Shown here piece by piece: positions 485 through 35,220 of a stretch of DNA of 35,220 nucleotides (within the stretch, counting starts at the first letter, position 1; each line of letters starts with the position of its first letter). The stretch lies in the IMG/VR virus record IMGVR_UViG_3300045988_171378; one strand, given 5' to 3'. The translations under genes were made by a program, and so were the position numbers. This stretch comes from a virus. The notes beneath the pieces were generated by a model. It worked only from the letters and a program-made list of their open reading frames with translations. It did not search any database and was not told where the DNA came from.

Positions 485-877
485 GTGTGTAATAATGGCT
501 ACATAGAAGTTTATTGCCCAGAACACCCAAGAGCCAAATCAAGGAAATATGTTTACGAACATATTTTAGTTATGGAAAAACATATCGGACGATATTTATT
601 GCCTAATGAAATCGTCCACCATAAAAATGAAATTAAAACTGATAATCGCATAGAAAATTTGCAACTCATGACAAATAATGAACATGCGGCTTTACATGAT
701 ACAATACGAGAAAAAAAACATATAAATGTTTTAAATGGGGCATGGAGTAAAAAATATGAATGTTGCATTAACTGTGGTTCAACTACAGTTAAACATAAAG
801 GCAATGGCTTATGTGTTAACTGCTACGCTACAATGTTGCGCCACAAAAAGGAGGTGATGCCCTATGTCGAACATTAG
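485..877 (+). CDS. HNH endonuclease catalytic domain with C-terminal Cys4 zinc ribbon
   Basis: GYIEVYCPEHPRA...YVYEHILVMEKHIGRYLLPNEIVHHKNEIKTDNRIENLQLMTNNEHAALH is a His-Asn-His signature; CINCG...CVNC follows. The frame is open back to nt 374 and there encodes KRYNIPLRETAFAKSIATQKERHPRWQGGKH. The listed start is GTG. Confidence 0.85.
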   Translation: MCNNGYIEVYCPEHPRAKSRKYVYEHILVMEKHIGRYLLPNEIVHHKNEIKTDNRIENLQLMTNNEHAALHDTIREKKHINVLNGAWSKKYECCINCGSTTVKHKGNGLCVNCYATMLRHKKEVMPYVEH

Positions 878-888
878 AGCCGCACTCT

Positions 889-2304
889 ATGTTCGCGTTT
901 AACGCAAGCACGATGGAACAAGCGACCGACGGATATTCCATAGGCGAGCAAAAGGATAAATTACTGCACTACGCAAGTGCGCAAGGGTATGCTGTCGTCG
1001 ATACGTATTCCGACGAGGGCTTTTCCGGCAAAGATTTATTACGCCCGAATATGGAGCGAATGCTGAACGATATTCAGCACGGCAAGATAAATACCGTGCT
1101 GGTATATAAGCTTGACCGTCTTTCACGCCATGTCAAGGACGTATTAGAACTTGTCGAAACCTTTGATAAATGTAACGTAACTCTTTATTCGCTTTCGGAA
1201 AACTTCGATCTAGCCTCTCCTTTCGGCCGCGCGGCATTAAAAATGATGGCTACTTTTGCCGAACTTGAGCGCGAAACTATTGTAGAGCGCATGGAAATGG
1301 GCAAAATCGCAAGGGCCAAAGACGGCAAATATACATGTCCCGGAACGCGCTGCCCTTTCGGATACCGGCACGATAAGAAAAACGACCGTCTCCTCATTGA
1401 GGAATCCGAAGCCGAGATTATACGCAAGATATTCGATTTATACGTTAATCACGGATATACCTTCAGAAAGCTATACGATTATTGCCGCGAAGCCTATCCG
1501 GACGTTAAATATTTCAACAATCAAATGTGCTGCAAGCCTATAATCGAAAGGCCGCTGTACGCCGGCTATTTCCGTTACCGCGGCGGAGAACTTACAAAAG
1601 GGACTAATTTCGAAGCGATTATTTCTTACGAGCTTTTTCTCCAGGCGCAGGCGCAAGTTGACAGAAACCGTACTAAACGGCTTTCGGACAGCTCGCCCTA
1701 TTTGTTAACCGGACTTCTGATTTGCGGAAGGTGCGGAAACCGATACGTCGGCAAAATGTATGAGCGTTACACTAAAAAGCCGGACGGTACGCACACCAAG
1801 CATTACCGTTACCGGGATTACGGTTGCGCGGCCAGACTTAAGCGCGATAAAAATTATCACCCGGCAAAATGCGACAATGATATTTACCGCGCCGAGGAGC
1901 TGGAAAAAATCGTCGAGGATTACGTACTCAATCTGAATATTGACGATTACAACAAAGCCGACTTCTCCCCCGGCCTCATAGATAAAATGATGAGCGAAAT
2001 AGGCGCGATAAAACGCTCGCAAAGCAAACTGCTTGACCTGTATCTTTCCGGCGATATTGATAAGGATACTTTTCTTATAAGAAAAATCGAATACGATTCT
2101 AAAATTGCGGAGCTGCAAAATCTGATAGAAAAAGAAACTGAATCCGTACAGTCCGCGCCGACTAACGCTGAAGCGATTAAAAAGTCTATTGCAGAATACA
2201 GTATGCTCAACCGGCGACAAAAGCGCACGTTGCTAGAATATCTTATCAAAAATATCATAGTTGACGGCAGCAGAATCACAGTAAATTTACGGCTCAAAAA
2301 ATAA
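889..2304 (+). CDS. int: Large serine recombinase (phage integrase), 5' end disrupted
   Basis: Resolvase-type catalytic domain STMEQATDGYSIGEQ...VLVYKLDRLSRH...AELERETIVERM. This is followed by a recombinase domain, a Cys-rich zinc ribbon (CGRCGNRY...C...C) and a coiled coil. The canonical start MSNIRAALYVRV (ATG 864, RBS aaggaggtg) is in another frame and ends at TAA 900. Seven nt (900-906) separate YVRV from STMEQ. Confidence 0.85.
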   Translation: MFAFNASTMEQATDGYSIGEQKDKLLHYASAQGYAVVDTYSDEGFSGKDLLRPNMERMLNDIQHGKINTVLVYKLDRLSRHVKDVLELVETFDKCNVTLYSLSENFDLASPFGRAALKMMATFAELERETIVERMEMGKIARAKDGKYTCPGTRCPFGYRHDKKNDRLLIEESEAEIIRKIFDLYVNHGYTFRKLYDYCREAYPDVKYFNNQMCCKPIIERPLYAGYFRYRGGELTKGTNFEAIISYELFLQAQAQVDRNRTKRLSDSSPYLLTGLLICGRCGNRYVGKMYERYTKKPDGTHTKHYRYRDYGCAARLKRDKNYHPAKCDNDIYRAEELEKIVEDYVLNLNIDDYNKADFSPGLIDKMMSEIGAIKRSQSKLLDLYLSGDIDKDTFLIRKIEYDSKIAELQNLIEKETESVQSAPTNAEAIKKSIAEYSMLNRRQKRTLLEYLIKNIIVDGSRITVNLRLKK

Positions 2305-6346: not shown

Positions 6347-6850
6347 TTATGTAATATTGATTTTGAATGCTACAGCAACGTTGCTGTAAAGCCGTACTTC
6401 TCCGGTCGATGAATTTACATTGATGCCGAAATCTATTTTATTTCCGCTGTTGTCATACGTCATGACCGTCGGGTTATAACCTTTACCGTGCGTTTCTTCC
6501 GGTATTATGATTGTAAAAGGTGCGGCGCTGCCCTGCCACGCGCTTGCCGTATAGGTATTTACGTAAGGGGCCGCTCCTCCCGACGCCGGTATATGCCAAT
6601 TTCCATCACTATATATCCATAACCTGAAAGTCTGAATCACGTAATAAAGCTTGTTTTCTATAGGCGACAGTAACGCCTCTCGCTCACTCTCCGCTGCGAG
6701 CGGGATTATATCCGTAATTTCAATTCGGTCGCCGTTTAACGAGTCGAAATAAAGCCTTTTGGTGTCCCTGACGTATATTACCTGCCCGGCCGTTTTGGAT
6801 ATACTGTTAAGCGCCGACGATATCGTTTCGCCCGATTGCATTAAAGCCAT
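6347..6850 (-). CDS. Tail fibre-associated protein
   Basis: N-terminal motif VIYVRDTKRLYFDSLNG is paralogous to ALYFVSDTHRVYKGGTLY of the upstream fibre gene. RBS gaggagg. Confidence 0.45.
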   Translation of the reverse strand: MALMQSGETISSALNSISKTAGQVIYVRDTKRLYFDSLNGDRIEITDIIPLAAESEREALLSPIENKLYYVIQTFRLWIYSDGNWHIPASGGAAPYVNTYTASAWQGSAAPFTIIIPEETHGKGYNPTVMTYDNSGNKIDFGINVNSSTGEVRLYSNVAVAFKINIT

Positions 6851-26781: not shown

Positions 26782-27566
26782 TGTTTATCGCTGTCTTCTA
26801 CGTTAGAATTAAGCCATGTTGAAAAGTACGGTATATATTCGAGTTTTCTTCCTTCCCCGTCATTCTCTCTTTTCCATGCTTCGTTATACCTTTCTAAAAG
26901 CTGATAAATCTCTGCGGCTTTTTTACGGGCATCTTCTTTCCTAATACCTTGCAATTTCTTAATAAAAGTGTTTTTGCCTTGCACTTTACTTACCTTACGA
27001 GGATATAGTTCGTAAATATATTTAAAGTAATTTTCTATTTCTTCCTTTGATACTTTATCTTTATCAATATTAGATATAAAATTATTATTTAATATATTTA
27101 TATTATCAGGTATAAATATATCTAAATTATTAGATATATTATCTATATTAGATATAGATATATTATTTTTATTTATTTTATTATTATTTATATTATTATT
27201 TAATATATTTATATTATCTATATTATTATATGTAACAATTTCTTCACTAGGAGAGCACGTTTTGATTCCTACCTCGGGAAAATCAGAAATGTTAATCTGA
27301 TCAATTCTTAAGATTCTTCTAGCCACTGTTTTCCCGTCTGCTTCATACTGAATTTCTCTGTATAAATATCCATTTTGCACTAACGCAGAAAGCCAATCCT
27401 TTATAGTTTTTTCAGTAACTTCATACAGAGTAGAAAAATATTTGTTTGTTGCACAACAAAAACCTTTTTCGACGCAAAGCGCGGCTATCTCGCCGTACAA
27501 CAATCTCGCCCCCATAGCTATTGATTTATCGTACCTTACATTTGCAGGAATAATTGCATAGTCCAT
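26778..27566 (-). CDS. Replication initiator / replisome organiser (winged-HTH N-terminus, DnaD-like C-terminus) with Asn/Ile-rich linker
   Basis: IPANVRYDKSIAMGARLLYGEIAALCVEKGFCCATNKYFSTLYEVTEKTIKDWLSALVQNGYL, then C-terminal YELYPRKVSKVQGKNTF...IPYFSTWLN. Confidence 0.65.
   Translation of the reverse strand: MDYAIIPANVRYDKSIAMGARLLYGEIAALCVEKGFCCATNKYFSTLYEVTEKTIKDWLSALVQNGYLYREIQYEADGKTVARRILRIDQINISDFPEVGIKTCSPSEEIVTYNNIDNINILNNNINNNKINKNNISISNIDNISNNLDIFIPDNINILNNNFISNIDKDKVSKEEIENYFKYIYELYPRKVSKVQGKNTFIKKLQGIRKEDARKKAAEIYQLLERYNEAWKRENDGEGRKLEYIPYFSTWLNSNVEDSDKQ
27069..27218. repeat. AT-rich iteron cluster inside the initiator gene (candidate origin)
   Basis: The 27-bp perfect direct repeat attattatttaatatatttatattatc occurs at 27081-27107 and 27192-27218. 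The 10-mer attagatata occurs at 27069, 27129 and 27147. Confidence 0.55.
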
Positions 27567-28326: not shown

Positions 28327-28494
28327 TTATGCAACCCTCGGATTATCTCCGCACAACTTTTCATCCGTCGTATCCAAATAATTTTCTACAATGTCTAACA
28401 ACTTTTCGCCGGTTTCATAAGGCATTTCCTGCAATAACGCCGCGATAAAATAATATAAAAACTCCGTGTTATTTTCAGCTTTTTCTTTAAGCAT
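28327..28494 (-). CDS. Small protein, FLYYFIAALL family, copy A (55 aa, below the track cutoff)
   Basis: Hand translation gives MLKEKAENNTEFLYYFIAALLQEMPYETGEKLLDIVENYLDTTDEKLCGDNPRVA. It is paralogous to 34265..34483 and 33867..33974. Confidence 0.5.
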   Translation of the reverse strand: MLKEKAENNTEFLYYFIAALLQEMPYETGEKLLDIVENYLDTTDEKLCGDNPRVA

Positions 28495-28603
28495 TTGCCT
28501 GTCCCTCCTCGTTTAATAAACTTTGCACTTTCCCTACAAGCGGTTTAATTTTATCTTCTCCGATTATGTCGTACAACATTATCAACAGCAAATATAAATC
28601 CAT
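28487..28603 (-). CDS. Small hydrophobic-start peptide (38 aa)
   Basis: MDLYLLLIMLYDIIGEDKIKPLVGKVQSLLNEEGQANA. RBS ggag. 8-nt overlap with the next ORF. Confidence 0.35.
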   Translation of the reverse strand: MDLYLLLIMLYDIIGEDKIKPLVGKVQSLLNEEGQANA

Positions 28604-28624
28604 TTTTTAAATACTCCAATTTAT

Positions 28625-28653
28625 TTGACTTTTTTAACTGCCTGCCGTATAAT
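28625..28653 (+). promoter_or_regulatory. Consensus promoter of structured RNA A
   Basis: TTGACT (28625-28630), 17-nt spacer, TATAAT (28648-28653). Confidence 0.7.
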
Positions 28654-28659
28654 TAGAGG

Positions 28660-28737
28660 GTCGAGGGGCTTAGGCAGGTTGTTTGCCCCTCGTACCTTTT
28701 CGCCGTCCTTCCATACTACCGTTGGGCGGCTTTTTTA
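28660..28737 (+). ncRNA. Structured RNA, copy A (two hairpins, the second a terminator)
   Basis: Hairpin 1: CGAGGGGC (28662-28669) / GCCCCTCG (28685-28692) with a 15-nt loop. Hairpin 2: GCCGTCC (28702-28708) / GGGCGGC (28724-28730) followed by TTTTTT. Conserved with covariation in two further copies. Confidence 0.55.
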
Positions 28738-30009: not shown

Positions 30010-30654
30010 TTAGTCCTTAGCCGGCTTATACGCCTTTACCATTGCTATCAGATCGCTGTATTGCTGCTCCGTCAGCTCGTCATAGCTCTTTGCAGGTATT
30101 GCATTCATAAACATTATTATCCTGTCGTTGGGACACTTGCTCGCCAGCTGATGCTGTTTTACCGTCAGCTTCCTTCCGCTCTCCGCTATCCTCACATCGC
30201 TTGCTACCGATCTTTCCTCCGCCGTTTTCTGCGCGGGAATCGTGATATTTTCTTCCTCTTCTTTTTCGTTTTCCGGTAAATCCTCGCCCGCATAGATATA
30301 TAATCCCAACCCGTGCCGAGCGCACGCTTTGGTCAGACTTCTTTGTATCGCCTTATTCACGTCGCAGCTCGTCACGTTTTCTAACGGTATCGACTGGTTT
30401 CTGTTATTCATGACCGGCAGCTCCTCGATATGCTCGATGCCTTCTATGCTTACCCCCGTTTTCACCCAGCACGTGCGTCCGTCCGTATGATAATTCCACC
30501 CTTGCGCGTTCTCATAAATTACATAGCTCGCCTCCGGGTATCTCTTTTTTACTTCTCCCCATGCGTATGCCCAGGCTAAATACGTCAGTCCGTTCTTCTG
30601 TTCCGTTTTGTCGTTTACGTTTACCGCATTTAATTCTTCAAAATAATTTCCCAT
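30010..30654 (-). CDS. Rad52/Sak-like (DUF1071-type) single-strand annealing protein
   Basis: GLTYLAWAYAWGEVKKRYPEASY...LPVMNNRNQSI...NKAIQRSLTKACARHGLGLYIYAGEDLP matches the family pattern. Confidence 0.7.
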   Translation of the reverse strand: MGNYFEELNAVNVNDKTEQKNGLTYLAWAYAWGEVKKRYPEASYVIYENAQGWNYHTDGRTCWVKTGVSIEGIEHIEELPVMNNRNQSIPLENVTSCDVNKAIQRSLTKACARHGLGLYIYAGEDLPENEKEEEENITIPAQKTAEERSVASDVRIAESGRKLTVKQHQLASKCPNDRIIMFMNAIPAKSYDELTEQQYSDLIAMVKAYKPAKD

Positions 30655-30669: not shown

Positions 30670-30924
30670 CTAAAAGCTTATTATGACGATCTTCCGCGTT
30701 TCTTTATCGTACACCGCTTCGAGCGCGCTATTCCCCTCCGGCGTTTGAACGTCCATGTTTTCATCAAATTTAATTCGCTTCAATACGCTCGTCAGTTCAT
30801 TCGCTAAGCGTCTTCCTCGCGCTACCCCGTCGCATTCTTGCTCGTGCGCTCTGCATGCGTCTTCAAAGAAAAACATATTGCCGCACTTTTCACAAGTATA
30901 AATCGTTTCTGTGGTGGTTTTCAT
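30670..30924 (-). CDS. Small zinc-binding protein (84 aa)
   Basis: CEKCG...CRAHEQEC. RBS aaaggaga. Confidence 0.5.
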   Translation of the reverse strand: MKTTTETIYTCEKCGNMFFFEDACRAHEQECDGVARGRRLANELTSVLKRIKFDENMDVQTPEGNSALEAVYDKETRKIVIISF

Positions 30925-30942: not shown

Positions 30943-30978
30943 GTTTAAGAATTTTACAAAATAACTAGGCTCTTAAAC
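30943..30978 (-). repeat. Solitary CRISPR-like repeat unit (36 nt)
   Basis: The minus strand reads GTTTAAGAGCCTAGTTATTTTGTAAAATTCTTAAAC. It overlaps the stop codon of 30973..31155. Confidence 0.6.
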
Positions 30979-31155
30979 TTTTATACGGTATCCCATATAC
31001 ATATTGCTGTTTTCTTCTACCGCCTCTTCGCTTTCCTCTTCCTCGTCCATATATTCCACTTCCACTCCGAGCTTGTCCAATGCCGCGCATAATTCCGCTG
31101 CCGCGTCGAAATCCTTTACCTTTATTCTTTGTGTTTCCAATACTACCTCGTACAT
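30973..31155 (-). CDS. Small highly acidic protein (60 aa)
   Basis: EYMDEEEESEEAVEE. RBS gaaggag. Confidence 0.5.
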   Translation of the reverse strand: MYEVVLETQRIKVKDFDAAAELCAALDKLGVEVEYMDEEEESEEAVEENSNMYMGYRIKV

Positions 31156-31215
31156 ATCTCTAACTCCTTCAACCCATAGGCTTTTATCCTTCCGGCTGCA
31201 TAATCCGCGTTTCTC

Positions 31216-32001
31216 TTAAACCTTGCCAAAATGAATTTTAATCAGTTCTATAAAGGCCTTATACTCTTTTCCGTAGATATTATCACCATGCGTTTCTTCA
31301 ACCTTTCGTTCAAACTCATTAAGCATGCCGCAAAAACACCCGCATACTATTTTTACTCCCCCATCTTTTTCAATAAATGCTGTTGTAGTATCAAGCCTTA
31401 AGCCGATTTTAGAGCACCATATAATATCTGCGTCACCGGATACACTCGCGTTGCCGTATACCCTCGCGTTGCCGGATACACTCGCGTCACCGCATACCCT
31501 CGCGTTGCCGTATACCCTCGCGTCACCGCATACACTCGCGTTGCCGGATATCCACGCGGCACCGGATATCCACGCGTCACAGCATACCCTCGCGTCACCG
31601 GATACACTCGCGTTGCCGGATACCCTCGCGTTGCCGTATACACTCGCGTTGCCGGATATCCACGCGTCACCGTATACCCTCGCGTTGCCGTATACACTCG
31701 CGTTGCCGTATACACTCGCGTTGCCGGATACACTCGCGTCACCGGATACACTCGCGTCACCGTATACCCTCGCGTTGCCGTATACACTCGCGTCACCGCA
31801 TACCCTCGCGTCACCGGATACACTCGCGTTGCCGGATATCCACGCGGCACCGGATTGACTTAAATTTTCCCCTTTTTCGACGTACCCGCCTAAGTCGCCT
31901 TTCTTGATTCCTAATGCTTTTATTGCCCTTACTGCTCGTATACGATAAAGCGTCACACCTGACTGTTCTATCGTAATATCTGTTAATTCATATTTCTTCA
32001 C
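31216..32001 (-). CDS. YdcK-like hexapeptide-repeat (beta-helix) protein
   Basis: The N-terminus YELTDITIEQSGVTLYRIRAVRAIKALGIKKGDLGGYVEKGENLSQSGAAWISGNA parallels E. coli YdcK. It is followed by 24 consecutive hexads G(N/D)A(S/R/W)(V/I)(S/Y/C). GTG start. Confidence 0.6.
   Translation of the reverse strand: MKKYELTDITIEQSGVTLYRIRAVRAIKALGIKKGDLGGYVEKGENLSQSGAAWISGNASVSGDARVCGDASVYGNARVYGDASVSGDASVSGNASVYGNASVYGNARVYGDAWISGNASVYGNARVSGNASVSGDARVCCDAWISGAAWISGNASVCGDARVYGNARVCGDASVSGNARVYGNASVSGDADIIWCSKIGLRLDTTTAFIEKDGGVKIVCGCFCGMLNEFERKVEETHGDNIYGKEYKAFIELIKIHFGKV
31420..31851. repeat. 24 tandem 18-nt units (coding hexapeptide repeats)
   Basis: Units such as gcgttgccgtataccctc and gcgtcaccggatacactc repeat head to tail. 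This keeps all frames on both strands open. Confidence 0.9.
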
Positions 32002-32177
32002 TGTTTGTCCCTCCTTGCGCTCAACCCGTTTGCGTCTCTCACAAACCCCGACAGCGTATCTACTAACACCTTAAAGCTTCCTTCTGCAAATTCATATGCT
32101 CGCCTGATCGCCGTTTCCTTGTCCGAATATCCGTACCGTCTCAATCCCTCGTCCCGTATTACCGTTACTATATACAT
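31998..32177 (-). CDS. Hypothetical protein (59 aa, below the track cutoff)
   Basis: Hand translation gives MYIVTVIRDEGLRRYGYSDKETAIRRAYEFAEGSFKVLVDTLSGFVRDANGLSARRDKQ. GTGA overlap with the next gene. Confidence 0.4.
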   Translation of the reverse strand: MYIVTVIRDEGLRRYGYSDKETAIRRAYEFAEGSFKVLVDTLSGFVRDANGLSARRDKQ

Positions 32178-32178
32178 G

Positions 32179-32406
32179 CTAACACTCCTCTTTACGGTTC
32201 TTTTCTATCACGTCAAAAAAGTAAGTTTCAGCCTCATCCGATTTCCCGGGCTTCGCCGTCTTCTTGATAAAATCCTTAATCAGCTTGTCCAACGCGGCGT
32301 ATGCGTCGGCATAAAAGCCTAAACATTCCGGCATACTGCCGCTTACGTTTCCGCTTATACTTACTCCGTCTTTTTCCTCCCGTATTACGATTTTCTTCAT
32401 GTCCAT
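32179..32406 (-). CDS. Hypothetical protein (75 aa)
   Basis: RBS aaaggaga. The start may be the second ATG (32400). Confidence 0.5.
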   Translation of the reverse strand: MDMKKIVIREEKDGVSISGNVSGSMPECLGFYADAYAALDKLIKDFIKKTAKPGKSDEAETYFFDVIEKNRKEEC

Positions 32407-32416
32407 TCTCCTTTTT

Positions 32417-32452
32417 ATATAAGAGTTTTACAAAATAACAAGGCTCTAAAAC
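32417..32452 (-). repeat. Solitary CRISPR-like repeat unit (36 nt, degenerate 3' end)
   Basis: The minus strand reads GTTTTAGAGCCTTGTTATTTTGTAAAACTCTTATAT. It overlaps the stop codon of 32446..32706. Confidence 0.6.
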
Positions 32453-32706
32453 TTTATAAGCTCTCTATCGATTTTTTCACGCTGCTCCAAAAGCTCGCGG
32501 CGGCGCTCTTCTATGCGCTCGAAACGCTTGACGGCGCGCTCTTTAGCTCTATAAGCAGGATCCACTTTACGCGCATAATCGTCGCATAATTCCTTGTTCT
32601 TTTCGTATGTAAAAACCTGCGGCTCTTTCATCCAATCCTCGCCTTTAAAGATTGTCCCGTCCGCCGTTACCATAGTGACTTCAAAATTATGCGGTTTATA
32701 TACCAT
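32446..32706 (-). CDS. Hypothetical protein (86 aa)
   Basis: RBS agaggtg. C-terminal charged helix. Confidence 0.55.
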   Translation of the reverse strand: MVYKPHNFEVTMVTADGTIFKGEDWMKEPQVFTYEKNKELCDDYARKVDPAYRAKERAVKRFERIEERRRELLEQREKIDRELIKF

Positions 32707-32749: not shown

Positions 32750-32769
32750 CTGTCACCGCTTTCGTACAT
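32750..32769. repeat. Left arm of the 20-bp perfect inverted repeat bracketing the mini-array (partner 32871-32890)
   Basis: ctgtcaccgctttcgtacat is the exact reverse complement of atgtacgaaagcggtgacag. Confidence 0.95.
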
Positions 32770-32870
32770 GTTTGAGGTTTTACAAAATAACAAGGCTCTC
32801 AAACGATTTTGATTTCCATTTTAAATACCCTCTTGTTTAAGAGTTTTATAAAATAACTAGGCTCTCAAAC
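32770..32870 (-). CRISPR. CRISPR-like mini-array: 36-nt repeat, 30-nt spacer, 35-nt repeat (type II-like repeat; no cas genes)
   Basis: Minus-strand repeats are GTTTGAGAGCCTAGTTATTTTATAAAACTCTTAAAC (32870-32835) and GTTTGAGAGCCTTGTTATTTTGTAAAACCTCAAAC (32804-32770). The spacer is aagagggtatttaaaatggaaatcaaaatc (32834-32805). Confidence 0.5.
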
Positions 32871-32908
32871 ATGTACGAAAGCGGTGACAGACGATTTTGA
32901 TTTCTATT

Positions 32909-33112
32909 TTACAAACTTCCGTTTCCTGAAAAATAATTTACCAACTCGTCGATTCCGACCGATAGTATATCTGCTAATTTCGGAATTTGCGTTAAACTAG
33001 GCTTACACTTACCTGACGCCCAAAATCCTACAAGCGAACGCGAAACACCTAATTTTCGCGCTAAACGTGCACAAGTCATATCGTTTGACTTTAACAGTTC
33101 TTTAAAATTCAT
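32909..33112 (-). CDS. Cro-like XRE-family HTH protein (67 aa)
   Basis: MTCARLARKLGVSRSLVGFWASGKCKPSLTQIPKLADIL. RBS aaggaggt. Divergent from the CI-like gene. Confidence 0.75.
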   Translation of the reverse strand: MNFKELLKSNDMTCARLARKLGVSRSLVGFWASGKCKPSLTQIPKLADILSVGIDELVNYFSGNGSL

Positions 33113-33156: not shown

Positions 33157-33246
33157 AACGGAGGGGCTTAGGCAGGTTGTTCGCCCCTCTTCCCTTATCG
33201 CCGTCCTACGCTTTTTGCATTTCCGTCGGACGGCTTTTCTTTTTTA
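33157..33246 (+). ncRNA. Structured RNA, copy B
   Basis: Hairpin 1: GAGGGGC (33161-33167) / GCCCCTC (33183-33189), with the same loop as copy A. Hairpin 2: GCCGTCC (33200-33206) / GGACGGC (33228-33234) followed by TTTTCTTTTTT. Confidence 0.55.
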
Positions 33247-33518: not shown

Positions 33519-33908
33519 ATGAAAACTTTGAAACCATTAAGAAAAGCACTGAAACAAACACAAACGGATATAGCTAAATATTTAGGTATTACTGTATCTG
33601 CTTACGGCAATTACGAATTAGGGCAACGCGAACCCGATATAGCCACACTCAACAAGCTTGCCGACTATTTCGACGTTTCCGTTGATTATCTATTAGGCAG
33701 GACTGAAATCCCCAATGCTTACGAAAATATTGTTAATACGCATATAAAAAATAAGTCTGCCGATTTTATTTCGACAGACTTACCCACTGCTATAGCTGAA
33801 AGAATGCGCTCTCATAATTTATCTTTAGAAAAATTTAAAAATTTAACTCCTCAGCAAACTGACGATTTACTTAATATTATCGAGATATTTCTCAATAATC
33901 TCAAGTAG
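33519..33908 (+). CDS. CI-like repressor (XRE HTH N-terminal domain plus C-terminal domain)
   Basis: LKQTQTDIAKYLGITVSAYGNYELGQREPDIATLNKLADYFDVSVDYLLGRTE. 129 aa. Divergent from the Cro-like operon. Confidence 0.8.
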   Translation: MKTLKPLRKALKQTQTDIAKYLGITVSAYGNYELGQREPDIATLNKLADYFDVSVDYLLGRTEIPNAYENIVNTHIKNKSADFISTDLPTAIAERMRSHNLSLEKFKNLTPQQTDDLLNIIEIFLNNLK

Positions 33909-34264: not shown

Positions 34265-34483
34265 TCACACAGCAAAAGTATTTACTCGTAAAACTCTTTC
34301 ACTTTTAACCTCCGTAACGGGAGCCAAATAATTTTCTACAATGTCTAACAACTTTTCGCCTGCTTCGTAAGGCATTTCCTGCAATAACGCCGCGATAAAA
34401 TAATATAAAAACTCCGCGTTATTTTCTGTTTTCTCTAATACATGCGTCTCTTTTGCTTCCTCTGTGCGTATTCCTAAATCCAT
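34265..34483 (-). CDS. Small protein, FLYYFIAALL family, copy C (72 aa)
   Basis: NNAEFLYYFIAALLQEMPYEAGEKLLDIVENYL is nearly identical to copy A. The DNA at 34327-34430 is a close repeat of 28375-28478. Confidence 0.55.
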   Translation of the reverse strand: MDLGIRTEEAKETHVLEKTENNAEFLYYFIAALLQEMPYEAGEKLLDIVENYLAPVTEVKSERVLRVNTFAV

Positions 34484-34504
34484 TTTTTAAATCCTCCAAT
34501 TTAT

Positions 34505-34533
34505 TTGACTTTTTTACCTGCCTGTCGTATAAT
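34505..34533 (+). promoter_or_regulatory. Consensus promoter of structured RNA C
   Basis: TTGACT (34505-34510), 17-nt spacer, TATAAT (34528-34533). Confidence 0.7.
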
Positions 34534-34539
34534 CAGAGG

Positions 34540-34630
34540 GTGTCAGAGGGGCGGCAAGCGTTACCCCTCTGCCCTCTTGGCGCCGTTCGGTTTTGGTTTA
34601 GTGGACTTTCAACCGAGCGGCTTCCCTTTT
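34540..34630 (+). ncRNA. Structured RNA, copy C
   Basis: Hairpin 1: CAGAGGGG (34544-34551) / CCCCTCTG (34564-34571). Hairpin 2: GCCGTTCGG (34582-34590) / CCGAGCGGC (34613-34621), followed by TTCCCTTTT, a weaker U-run. Confidence 0.5.
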
Positions 34631-34985: not shown

Positions 34986-35198
34986 ATGAAATTTGCAAAT
35001 CGAATTAAGCACTTGCTTGTAGATTGCGGCAACATATCAGAGGCGGAACTTGCAAGGCGGTTGGGTGTAACACCGCAAACTCTCAACAAGAAAATGCACA
35101 CAGATAACTTTTCCACCGCCGACCTCGAGCAAATAGCCGCCGCTTTGGGCGTATCTTTCGAGGCGTATTTTGTCGCCACCGACGGTACAAAAATATAA
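34986..35198 (+). CDS. HTH DNA-binding protein, module C (70 aa)
   Basis: NISEAELARRLGVTPQTLNKKMHTDNFSTADLEQIAAALG. RBS gggaga. The 3' end lies in the terminal repeat (equivalent to nt 1-77). Confidence 0.75.
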   Translation: MKFANRIKHLLVDCGNISEAELARRLGVTPQTLNKKMHTDNFSTADLEQIAAALGVSFEAYFVATDGTKI

Positions 35199-35220
35199 GG
35201 TAACGCTATGCAAAAAAAAG
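35122..35220. repeat. Terminal direct repeat, identical to nt 1-99
   Basis: 99/99 identity with the start of the window. Confidence 0.97.

Follow-up and report, generated by a model that had tools for sequence, protein, structure and literature searches.

Why should a phage carry, within one early operon, lone copies of a 36-nt repeat that begin exactly on the stop codon of the gene upstream? The arrangement was noted in a preliminary description of the virus record IMGVR_UViG_3300045988_171378, where an RNA anti-CRISPR, a cassette-boundary recombination site and an RNA-processing or translational-coupling element were put forward as possible roles. The window, meaning the whole stretch of 35,220 nucleotides that was analysed, comprises a phage genome of 35,121 bp plus a 99-bp terminal redundancy. 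Judged by sequence, the phage family is common in the human gut, about 35 kb in genome size, temperate in its gene set and devoid of cas genes and a tracrRNA of its own; no cas or tracrRNA homologue was found in the window (tblastn with the host cas operon). Among GenBank phages no close relative was found, and matches are limited to the repeat-protein and Sak genes. Genomes of the family have up to five repeat sites, located within the early and lysogeny region. The features of the window are collected in Table 1.

Table 1. Repeats, neighbouring genes and spacer targets in the window (positions are those of the whole stretch).
Feature	Position	Strand	Details
Target of the mini-array spacer of sibling phages L013, L082, L126 and L161	34595..34624	-	28/30; 3' flank aaaA
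Target of the mini-array spacer of sibling phage L002, in CI-like repressor gene	33599..33621	+	21/23; 3' flank ggcA
Decayed copy of the gene start targeted in L002	32893..32922	-	23/30; ATG to ATA; flank gtcT, not PAM-like
Inverted repeat, upstream arm	32871..32890	-	ctgtcaccgctttcgtacat; perfect, 20 nt; brackets mini-array
Mini-array repeat 1	32835..32870	-	GTTTGAGAGCCTAGTTATTTTATAAAACTCTTAAAC
Mini-array spacer, 30 nt	32805..32834	-	AAGAGGGTATTTAAAATGGAAATCAAAATC; 30/30 to sibling L002 146-175, 3' flank gaaA
Mini-array repeat 2, 35 nt	32770..32804	-	First 25 nt identical to host repeat
Inverted repeat, downstream arm	32750..32769	-	atgtacgaaagcggtgacag; pairs with arm at 32871..32890
86-aa early gene, function unassigned	32446..32706	-	Between mini-array repeat 2 and repeat A; ends inside repeat A
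Solitary repeat A	32417..32452	-	GTTTTAGAGCCTTGTTATTTTGTAAAACTCTTATAT, then AAAAAGGAGAATGGAC-ATG; TTT-TAG end of 86-aa gene
75-aa gene	32179..32406	-	Downstream of repeat A
261-aa gene	31216..32001	-	18-nt (hexapeptide) tandem units; ends on stub
9-nt stub	31213..31221	-	GTTTAAGAG; GTT-TAA ends 261-aa gene
60-aa acidic gene	30973..31155	-	Ends inside repeat B
Solitary repeat B	30943..30978	-	GTTTAAGAGCCTAGTTATTTTGTAAAATTCTTAAAC, then AAAAAAGGAGAAAAAGAT-ATG; GTT-TAA end of 60-aa gene
84-aa DUF7128 gene	30670..30924	-	Downstream of repeat B
Sak single-strand annealing protein gene	30010..30654	-	PF06378, E = 1.2e-37; same operon
Protospacer of host array L044 spacer	27346..27375	+	30/30

Both full copies, A and B, are present on the minus strand, the one that also encodes the early genes. 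With up to three mismatches allowed, the window has three matches to the family consensus, and 100 shuffles have none. The reported overlap with stop codons is exact: the protein ending in RIKV closes with GTT-TAA on positions 1-6 of repeat B, the one ending in LIKF with (AA)G-TTT-TAG on positions 1-7 of repeat A, and the one ending in FGKV with GTT-TAA on the stub. A and B therefore lie between genes, yet the upstream ORF takes its last codons from their first 6-7 nt. Directly after both comes the ribosome-binding site AAAAAGGAGA, as first described, with an ATG 10-18 nt further on. Repeat A has a private variant, G5T, and repeat B has the changes G5A/T13A. No other copy lies within about 100 bp of either; the stub is 234 nt from repeat B. 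The proteins of 59-86 aa that flank the repeats have no informative Pfam or PHROG family beyond a weak DUF7128 match and a marginal PHROG match (E = 0.0039). For the 86-aa protein no family match was found, and 406 blocks of the metagenome collection contain it exactly.

The stub GTTTAAGAG was taken from the start for a remnant of the same repeat. As a 9-mer it is not beyond chance (0.47 expected per window); it is the sequences of relatives, not this statistic, that bear the claim out. At the same gene end, contig L003 reads GTTTGAGAG and contigs L001, L128, L130, L131 and L133 have a full degenerate repeat, GTTTGATAGCTTTGTAATTTGTAACTCTTAGAC, and because of these the stub is regarded as a real remnant. 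At this site L002 has a mini-array, many contigs have a solitary repeat that is degenerate, and the window and L003 have a stub.

The preliminary description had proposed a comparison with host CRISPR repeats, and both full copies proved to be identical at 32 of 36 positions to the repeats of type II-A arrays from human-gut metagenomes, which is just under the 90% cut-off of SRUFinder. By this alignment, each of the two 36-nt elements is one copy of the repeat found in the CRISPR arrays of the phage's gut host. The host arrays have 36-nt repeats and 30-nt spacers; 25 loci have at least five repeats, and spacers were extracted from 32 loci under a looser criterion. Beside the array of locus L063 are genes for Cas9 (E = 4e-245), a type II Cas1 and Csn2 (E = 1.5e-37; all NCBIfam). 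L010, L020/L104 and L057 have a conserved tracrRNA complete with promoter, anti-repeat and terminator, of which L041 shows just the anti-repeat and terminator. From Cas9, type II Cas1, Csn2 and a tracrRNA with an anti-repeat, the host system is assigned to type II-A. Spacers of host arrays match the window at 30/30 and 29/30, and the phage is linked to hosts carrying this repeat because the L044 spacer matches it over its full length. A T26A change is common to all phage copies and absent from every host array examined, and the host leader end (..ATTTGAG), the integration anchor in type II-A systems, is missing from both A and B. As to the taxon of the host, one prophage protein is labelled 'Christensenellales bacterium'. 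A match to a Sulfurovum metagenome-assembled genome was rejected as chance; the genome scan pattern had required the phage-type ending ...TNTAAAA, whereas host repeats read ...TAATA.

If a mini-array is defined as at least two repeats with a spacer, A and B do not belong to one in the window, and a one-spacer mini-array is found at 32770-32870, 317 nt upstream of repeat A, to which it is the nearest other copy. The first 25 nt of its second repeat are the part predicted to pair with the host tracrRNA. Rfam returned nothing at gathering scores, and at permissive E-values gave sub-threshold matches to CRISPR-DR22 and CRISPR-DR61; matches to miRNA precursors were spurious, the inverted repeat that brackets the mini-array having produced them. 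Across relatives this site, between a cro-like gene and the 86-aa gene, holds zero, one or two spacers, and four different spacers occur there.

The matches obtained with mini-array spacers of the family (30/30, 29/30, 28/30 and 21/23) are all to sibling phages. The second spacer of L016 and L146, which matches at 29/30, has its target in the L002 gene that the spacer of the window also hits, 2 nt further on. Of eight spacer-protospacer matches, which include host-array spacers on other phage loci, seven have A as the fourth base of the 3' flank, giving a PAM estimate of N3-A that rests on eight protospacers, too few to define more.

A comparison of more than 30 related contigs showed three states of these intergenic sites: a solitary repeat, a repeat-spacer-repeat unit and a decayed stub. 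Repeat A is present in all relatives sampled through its flanking proteins and is solitary in most contigs. Four independent assemblies (L128, L130, L131 and L132), which form one sub-lineage, have at site A a repeat, the 30-nt spacer tcaatatagcgctgtcgaaaacgatgataa and a second repeat, both repeats reading GTTTTAG...AAAC. The T5 variant is confined to site A, barring one decayed fragment in L127. Because both flanking repeats keep this private G5T, the unit seems to be the footprint of Cas1-Cas2 spacer integration into a solitary repeat. It could also be that the repeat-spacer-repeat state is ancestral and the solitary form derived by loss; either way, the sequences suggest that the two states are linked. 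No protospacer of the site-A spacer was found in IMG/VR, in GenBank phages or in the loci before L134.

Since siblings have spacers at these sites, we consider it about an even chance that A and B are empty or collapsed slots of phage mini-CRISPR arrays, with which siblings would attack one another by way of host Cas9. The repeats, which are co-oriented with the early genes, would be transcribed inside the early operon, and their first 25 nt would pair with the host tracrRNA, as sequence and predicted duplex energy suggest. At a single repeat, host Cas1-Cas2-Csn2-Cas9 would add a 30-nt spacer, duplicating the repeat in the process, a step to which the four site-A assemblies point. The crRNA from the phage array would load host Cas9 against rival siblings, consistent with the reciprocal spacer-protospacer matches and their 3' flanks, and recombination between repeats would remove spacers, leaving a solitary repeat or a stub. 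As a by-product, the 36-nt repeats would be portable homology for the exchange of gene modules. Upstream ORFs would run into an inserted repeat, and the position exactly on the stop codon would arise because these ORFs terminate at the first in-frame stop of the repeat. From an empty slot a harmless crRNA-like RNA would arise, with the 3' end of the upstream gene as its guide; in the phage itself that gene end would be protected, since it is followed by the repeat and not by a PAM. Against the empty-slot reading stand the lack of a target for the site-A spacer, the missing leader end, changes in the lower stem of the tracrRNA duplex, and breakpoints without repeats.

It is also possible, and we put it forward tentatively, that the lone repeats are working, leaderless 'single-repeat arrays' into which the host type II-A system writes spacers, and which double as integron-like cassette boundaries. 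Type II-A systems are able to integrate spacers at internal, non-leader repeats, as in CRISPR1 and CRISPR3 of Streptococcus thermophilus (PMC7999890). There too a non-leader repeat gains a spacer and is duplicated; such ectopic acquisition is known only inside host arrays, whereas the putative target here is a lone phage repeat between protein genes. The closest parallel for the use of spacers is with the mini-arrays of Sulfolobus viruses SPV1 and SPV2 (PMC11656645), which likewise have host-type repeats, carry one or two spacers against close viruses, rely on host Cas proteins and vary in spacer content between near-identical genomes. Those viruses are archaeal, with a class 1 system and a single array, whereas the present phages are from the human gut, with a bacterial type II-A system, spacer-less A and B, and several separate sites interleaved with protein genes.

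A different function would be that of a decoy in the manner of RNA anti-CRISPRs (Racrs): repeats abundantly transcribed within the early operon would pair with the tracrRNA and, after cleavage by RNase III, load Cas9 with harmless guides of phage origin, so that both tracrRNA and Cas9 are titrated away from those host crRNAs that are directed at this phage. Validated Racrs belong to single-guide types I-C, I-E, I-F and V-A, have their own promoter and bind repeat-processing Cas proteins (Camara-Wilpert et al. 2023, PMC10651486); one for type VI-A has been reported separately. The present copies resemble viral solitary repeat units (SRUs) and Racrs in being lone host repeats in a cas-less phage, matching the host subtype and adjoined by small genes. 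They differ in that the system is type II-A, so that the partner would be tracrRNA plus Cas9, in having no clear promoter, in overlapping stop codons, and in that the sites of siblings hold spacers; as inhibitors they are candidates. A need for counter-defence follows from the host arrays that target this phage, and non-targeting crRNAs also lower type I-F interference. The copies are co-oriented with early genes and lie beside small proteins, as Racrs often adjoin acr genes (RacrIC1 is 11 nt after acrIC5 in one operon, PMC10651486), but the neighbouring proteins here have no known family. In the predicted duplex with tracrRNA (A -24.4, B -20.5, host repeat -28.2 and shuffles about -7 kcal/mol), the 17-nt upper stem is intact in A and nearly so in B, but the lower stem, beside the guide, is lost through G5T in A and G5A/T13A in B. 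Owing to these modelled lower-stem changes, A and B may be poor crRNA handles. No promoter just upstream of the repeats scores better than 9/12 (32613-32586 and 31229-31200); a strong promoter is found at 33453-33425. Copy B is dispensable in many relatives, and the same phages would depend on a working Cas9 for their own spacers. Finally, no plain-repeat decoy has been shown for type II, where the validated RNA inhibitors mimic an sgRNA or tracr-L. These, rAcrIIA1 (10.64898/2026.06.03.729762) and the tracr-L-derived viral single-guide RNAs (cited in 10.1101/2024.10.29.618823), are phage RNAs homologous to the type II crRNA repeat that engage Cas9, as A and B would. Such RNAs fuse repeat-like and tracrRNA-like parts and have their own promoter, whereas the window has no tracrRNA-like sequence. 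On balance we regard a decoy as unlikely.

The repeats might instead be neutral scars, that is RNA-inert leftovers of decayed mini-arrays or of recombination, kept for the stop codon and spacing that they give the flanking genes and of importance only as short homology in module exchange. The 3' ends of the solitary copies are decaying (CTCTTATAT and CTCTTAATC), and truncated copies and stubs occur at other sites in relatives. Within repeat A, polymorphism is 0/26 at positions 1-26 and 4/10 at positions 27-36, and it is high downstream; constraint on positions 1-26 was considered and rejected, as 0/26 is no different from the equally conserved upstream gene (11/300). The presence of copy B is polymorphic: it is identical in at least 13 relatives and missing in L002, in L124 and in a haplotype whose homology block stops at 30981, where the replaced segment comprises repeat B and the 5' two-thirds of the 84-aa gene. 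The preliminary description had reasoned that genes without the repeat in related phages would speak against a fixed boundary role, and this is the case for B (L002 and L124 have the same upstream gene) and not for A, which every relative examined retains. The cassette-boundary idea itself gains comparative support from homology blocks that begin or end at or inside repeats, recurrently at 30981 and 32804. Two phages of an unrelated pair differ by a 1.55-kb indel that directly adjoins a solitary repeat; a 30-nt sequence that precedes the solitary repeat in L027 and L088 and recurs in L062 and L067 was tried as a genuine spacer and proved to reflect this indel. Many breakpoints here lie at gene boundaries without repeats (31998, 30746, 30175 and 29337). 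The Sak annealing protein, whose gene belongs to this operon, could plausibly catalyse exchange over such short homology at the repeats.

Sequence divergence bears on scars in both directions. In distant alleles repeat A is conserved at 30-31/36, similar to the adjacent gene (78-80% nucleotide identity), but each diverged copy still has 32-34/36 identity to the host consensus. A repeat precedes every homologue of the 75-aa protein that was looked up (46-100% protein identity in our own alignment), even where the upstream gene differs (L127, L133 and L033), so that repeat A is kept though both flanks turn over. A fresh 30-nt spacer between exact, site-specific duplicates further implies that the repeat is recognised by adaptation machinery. 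Inert scars are accordingly an improbable account of both copies.

A further proposal is that the last 20-30 nt of the upstream gene act as a spacer, giving a non-canonical crRNA against rivals that lack the repeat. Jiao et al. 2021 reportedly found that a repeat-like stretch of mRNA can pair with tracrRNA and make the sequence upstream of it a Cas9 guide; those crRNAs derive from fortuitous host transcripts, whereas here full repeats stand at defined phage gene ends. Relatives without B share the gene end bar one base (...ccgtataaCa, then acgG), and the phage's own copy would be protected, as GTTT follows it, with T at flank position 4, unlike NNNA. That single mismatch, though, lies in the seed, 2 nt from the would-be PAM, and the flank there has G and not the usual A. 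Repeat A accompanies the 86-aa gene in all relatives that have this gene, leaving that guide without a known target, and the 5' variants weaken the crRNA handle. Gene-end guides are thus very unlikely. A Cracr-like guide against the host cas promoter was also tried and rejected: 3'-anchored k-mers of at least 11 nt from upstream of solitary repeats had no match in the cas9 and tracrRNA promoter regions of L010, L020, L057 and L104, and where the sequence upstream of copy B has a 13-nt match in relatives, the flank is not PAM-like.

Still less can be said for a structural RNA element, a hairpin that would stabilise or process the polycistronic mRNA or couple translation, and we rate it as most improbable. 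Its location between stop codon and ribosome-binding site would suit such a role, and palindromic ends are seen in B and in other solitary repeats of gut phages, some with stems of -9.9 to -11 kcal/mol. The hairpin first described for each copy can form in B, as a 9-pair stem (eight Watson-Crick pairs and one G.U), and fails for A, where the stem is broken because the 3' end CTCTTATAT, the part most variable among relatives, is unpaired with the 5' end. The predicted folds, -4.5 kcal/mol for B (z = -1.2) and -2.4 kcal/mol for A (z = -0.4), are no better than those of shuffles, the host repeat folding at -9.3 kcal/mol. The copies are invariant in the 5' arm while the 3' arm decays without compensating changes, no T-run follows on the sense strand, and all Rfam families are below threshold. 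With low predicted stability and one broken stem, the case for RNA processing or translational coupling is weak; the host repeat is the source of the palindromic ends.

Finally, it is barely credible that the repeats mimic an attachment site for integration into the host CRISPR array, as in PhiAP1.1 of Streptococcus pyogenes (10.1101/2020.10.09.333658), also a temperate phage of a type II-A host with a repeat-like sequence, which there is the attachment site: relatives do have, immediately before their serine integrase gene, a truncated repeat (site D), but this integrase-proximal copy is absent from the window, and A and B are part of the early operon, which integration would split, and on the circular map are separated from the integrase gene by about 4.5-6 kb. 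Cycles of integration and excision of the PhiAP1.1 type can also move spacers between host and phage (10.1101/2020.10.09.333658).

In viruses, a solitary repeat is commonly taken for an RNA anti-CRISPR and a mini-array for a weapon against rivals; here both are found at the same sites. If the lone repeats are single-repeat arrays, SRUs and mini-arrays would be no separate devices but alternative states of a single adaptive system carried by the phage, and the phage would keep in its own genome a heritable record of rival phages. Whether host Cas1-Cas2 writes into a lone phage repeat thereby becomes a testable question. For type II-A, where only sgRNA-like and tracr-L-like RNA inhibitors are known so far, the locus would add an example with a plain repeat, and it offers a natural source of short, repeat-flanked gene cassettes. 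The spacer matches, for their part, point to Cas9-mediated warfare between sibling prophages of the gut.

The window holds an entire phage genome (35,121 bp) and a 99-bp terminal redundancy (1-99 = 35122-35220), with a gene set of temperate type and early genes (29.3-33.1 kb) on the minus strand. On that same strand lie four copies of one 36-nt element, two in a mini-array and two solitary (copies A and B). As the preliminary description stated, the solitary repeats provide the stop codons of the upstream ORFs; behind each come AAAAAGGAGA and then the next gene start. The consensus matches the window three times at no more than three mismatches and not once in 100 shuffles; a 9-nt piece, the stub, is not above chance as a bare 9-mer (0.47 expected).

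Repeat copies in the window, repeat sites of the phage family and targets of phage-borne spacers (L-numbers are metagenome loci; matches are identical over aligned nucleotides)
Feature	Position	Strand	Particulars
Mini-array repeats	32870-32835 and 32804-32770	-	30-nt spacer between
Copy A, solitary	32452-32417	-	gives TTT-TAG end of 86-aa ORF (...LIKF)
Stub GTTTAAGAG	31221-31213	-	end of 261-aa ORF (...FGKV)
Copy B, solitary	30978-30943	-	gives GTT-TAA end of 60-aa ORF (...RIKV)
Site 0	between cro-like gene and 86-aa gene		no spacer (decayed repeat + terminal repeat), one (window) or two (L016, L146); different spacers in L002 and in L013/L082/L126/L161
Site A	copy A		in all contigs having the 86-aa gene
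Site B	copy B		identical in at least 13 contigs; missing in a second haplotype (L002, L124, others)
Site C	upstream of 60-aa gene		mini-array (L002), degenerate solitary repeat (many), GTTTGAGAG (L003) or stub (window)
Site D	upstream of serine integrase gene		truncated repeat in ~15 relatives; none in window
Target of window spacer	L002 146-175		30/30; 3' flank gaaA
Target of L016/L146 second spacer	L002 178-207		29/30; 3' flank aaaA; 2 nt beyond window-spacer target
Target of L002 spacer	window 33599-33621		21/23; 3' flank ggcA; CI-like repressor gene
Target of L013/L082/L126/L161 spacer	window 34595-34624		28/30; 3' flank aaaA

A metagenome scan with the pattern TTTGAGAGCYTWGTTATTT gave 119 loci, 25 of which are arrays of 36-nt repeats and 30-nt spacers (cut-off of at least five repeats), nearly all from human gut. 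The host array repeat is GTTTGAGAGCYTTGTTATTTTGTAATAYTCTTAAAC, with a few variants (host-type search pattern GTTTGAGAGCYTTGTTATTTTGTAATA). Locus L063 has cas9 (TIGR01865, E = 4e-245), type II cas1 and csn2 (TIGR01866, E = 1.5e-37) ahead of its array, and the host system is therefore type II-A. The tracrRNA gene is divergent from cas9, with a TTGACA/TATAAT promoter and an intrinsic terminator in L010, L020/L104 and L057, and its anti-repeat and terminator are also visible in L041; the anti-repeat, TTACAAAATAACAAGGCAAGTTCAAATAA, pairs with repeat positions 1-25. Two of these host loci look degenerate while keeping the tracrRNA, with cas9 reduced to a 346-aa N-terminal ORF (L020 7339-8376, L104 6712-7749) ahead of cas1, csn2 and a 13-repeat array. 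At 27346-27375 (30/30) and 6358-6387 (29/30) the window is matched by spacers of the host array L044, so hosts with this repeat meet this phage. The window itself has no cas genes and no tracrRNA-like sequence, and its Rfam search gave nothing above threshold. Comparison with host CRISPR repeats, as the preliminary description had proposed, revealed 32/36 identity to type II-A repeats for each of copies A and B. A T26A change is shared by all phage-family copies retaining position 26 and occurs in no host array. Copies A and B are genuine solitary repeat units of host type II-A origin.

Relatives were gathered by the repeat, which biases the sample to intact copies, and by the repeat-flanking proteins, which does not. 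All repeat-like sequences were catalogued in more than 30 different contigs, each ~35 kb and of human-gut origin, giving up to five repeat sites. Repeat A precedes every homologue of the 75-aa gene looked up, including those with a different upstream gene (L127, L133, L033); in the haplotype without copy B, the product of the 60-aa gene has the C-terminus ...GYRITTV, and the gene after it is a diverged allele. Because site C of relatives holds a mini-array, a degenerate repeat or GTTTGAGAG, the stub is, as first supposed, a genuine repeat remnant, on the basis of these states and not of 9-mer statistics. In L002 (1471-1525) the sequence that follows the stub (window 31161-31210), gcggattatgcagccggaaggataaaagcctatgggttgaaggag, forms the 3' end of another gene, in frame; being out of frame in the window, it is the leftover of a deleted cassette, whose deletion joins two AAGGAG ribosome-binding sites. 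The 261-aa gene (31216-32001, minus strand) consists mostly of ~22 tandem 18-nt units encoding hexapeptides (GNASVY/GDARVC...), ranges in length from 171 to 279 aa across relatives and strongly matches PHROGs of unknown function.

At site D the truncated repeat is GTTTGAGAGCCTTGTTATTTTACTCTTAAAC (L023, L106, L121, L128, L132, L134, L136-L140, L142, L145, L148, L149), with no repeat at window 840-865. PhiAP1.1 has an attachment site related to the host CRISPR repeat, and the truncated copy at site D may be another. The adjacent serine integrase (window 864-2304, plus strand) reads MSNIRAALYVRV-stop and then, from 889, another frame (471 aa), a break that splits the usual N-terminal YxRVS motif. 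Since the same 471-aa product occurs in 59 collection blocks, all in contigs under 50 kb, the split is no assembly error, and integration may perhaps be absent from this subtype. Between integrase and CI-like repressor the cargo varies (L128, L134, L136-L140, L142, L144-L149, L160), comprising HicA/HicB toxin-antitoxin, an Abi_2 abortive-infection gene, or HNH and Clr5-like genes (window type).

We put at about even the chance that the solitary copies are empty or collapsed slots of mini-arrays turned against sibling phages with the help of host Cas9 and the host's adaptation machinery; module exchange and overlap with stop codons would then be by-products. The window spacer matches a small-gene start in L002, and the window's own version (32893-32922) is decayed (ATG to ATA). 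Base 4 of the 3' flank is A in 7/8 matches, phage and host spacers pooled, which suggests a PAM of N3-A type; the repeat (GTTT...) has no A at that flank position. The target of the second L016/L146 spacer lies ~5 nt away from the place where the first spacer is predicted to direct cleavage. Cleavage-primed spacer acquisition is a feature of type II-A systems, and this position would fit it. Primed adaptation is described in PMC8265633.

A perfect 20-nt inverted repeat, ctgtcaccgctttcgtacat / atgtacgaaagcggtgacag, brackets the mini-array (window 32750-32890) and with the palindromic repeat ends would form a ~27-bp stem around it, a possible RNase III site; its upstream arm is present only in window-type relatives, and it is the source of spurious Rfam miRNA-precursor matches. 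A segment duplicated at ~94% identity (113-nt and 67-nt blocks; window 28374-28709, 34324-34541, 33161-33207) contains a promoter-like site (TTGACT-17-TATAAT) ahead of a GC-rich hairpin (GAGGGGC...GCCCCTC) and is possibly a repeated regulatory or small-RNA module; one of its copies adjoins the L013-type spacer target.

At site A, four independent assemblies (L128, L130, L131, L132) read ...gagcttataaa / GTTTTAGAGCCTTGTTATTTTGTAAAACTCTTAAAC / tcaatatagcgctgtcgaaaacgatgataa / GTTTTAGAGCCTTGTTATTTTGTAAAACTCTTAAAC / aaaaaggagaaagg-ATG, where the insert, with the spacer sequence TCAATATAGCGCTGTCGAAAACGATGATAA, has a length of exactly 30 nt, as host spacers do. Both repeats have T at position 5; bar one decayed L127 fragment, this variant is seen only at site A, whose TAG stop it creates. 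Integration by Cas1-Cas2 copies the target repeat and so predicts two identical copies; import from another array would be expected to bring a G5 repeat, and the two T5 repeats thus point to Cas1-Cas2 integration. Spacer gain is the more parsimonious direction, because the solitary state occurs in every sub-lineage, the expanded one in a single sub-lineage. The phage repeat copies are without the host leader end ...ATTTGAG, and type II-A systems occasionally use non-leader repeats (PMC7999890). No protospacer for this spacer was found in IMG/VR, GenBank phages or the metagenome loci numbered up to L133. Judged from sequence, a lone repeat has apparently gained a spacer in situ.

The RNA anti-CRISPR role raised in the preliminary description, a Racr-like decoy, is unlikely but has the tracrRNA pairing of copies A and B on its side. 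The predicted duplex with the host anti-repeat reaches -28.2 kcal/mol for the host repeat, -28.4 for the functional mini-array repeat (32804-32770), -24.4 for copy A and -20.5 for copy B, against about -7 for shuffled sequences. In copies A and B the predicted duplex lacks the lower stem adjoining the guide because position 5 is changed. They could therefore soak up tracrRNA and may be poorer Cas9 handles, which keeps the decoy role alive. Against it, type II has no known inhibitor of plain-repeat form; those validated mimic a whole sgRNA or tracr-L. The strongest promoter (33453-33425) lies ~1 kb upstream of copy A, and the neighbouring small proteins have no known-family matches. That the copies are neutral scars is neither more nor less probable than the decoy.

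The host repeat has stops in two of three frames, GTT-TGA (positions 4-6) and TAA (23-25), and phage-specific changes supply the rest: G5T gives TAG at 5-7 (site A), and T13A gives TAG at 12-14, used by the ORF entering site C in L003. The second mini-array of L002 shortens an ORF, which ends GTT-TGA within the repeat. This pattern is expected of repeats that arrived at gene ends, by insertion or by recombination, with ORFs reading on to the first stop; translational coupling, suggested at the outset, is not needed. Compared across the site-A region, nine haplotypes are variable at 11/300 sites of the upstream gene, at 0/26 over repeat positions 1-26, at 4/10 over 27-36 and at 3/16 over the 16 nt that follow; further on, polymorphism is very dense. 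The switch from conserved to variable block thus falls inside the repeat. Homology to the window recurrently ends at 30981 (copy B edge, 14 contigs) and 32804 (mini-array end, 17 contigs), and in a pair of gut phages unrelated to this family a 1.55-kb indel adjoins a solitary repeat. The operon encodes a Sak annealing protein, which might exploit the 36-nt homology. The proposed cassette-boundary role of the repeats is thus supported, but not as one exclusive to them, since homology also ends recurrently at repeat-free gene boundaries (31998, 30746, 30175, 29337).

That the repeats serve as gene-end guides is improbable, and a structural RNA element more so. The hairpin first described for every copy is weak in copy B, where a 9-pair stem is possible (-4.5 kcal/mol, z = -1.2 against shuffles), and broken in copy A, whose 3' end CTCTTATAT does not pair with the 5' end (-2.4 kcal/mol, z = -0.4). 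As the host repeat folds better (-9.3 kcal/mol), the palindromic ends are, on these predicted folds, a CRISPR-repeat legacy not maintained in copies A and B. Least probable of all is an attachment-site mimic.

Largely unrelated gut phages also carry solitary copies of this repeat family (L062/L067/L027/L088, L011/L015/L022/L120, L071/L080/L111, L005/L058/L030, L025). Their 3' end is often changed to CTCTCAAAC, which makes the 9-bp stem perfect (-9.9 to -11 kcal/mol), with a compensatory GAGCG/CGCTC pair in one; some precede a ribosome-binding site, and in L062/L067 an intrinsic terminator lies ~25 nt 3' of the repeat, as in a small-RNA gene.

Viral solitary repeat units (PMC10651486) and mini-arrays (PMC11656645) likewise are host repeats carried by viruses, solitary or with spacers. 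What stands out here is that the system is type II-A, that the repeats are interleaved with protein genes, that targeting among abundant gut phages is reciprocal and that a lone repeat has apparently gained a spacer in situ.
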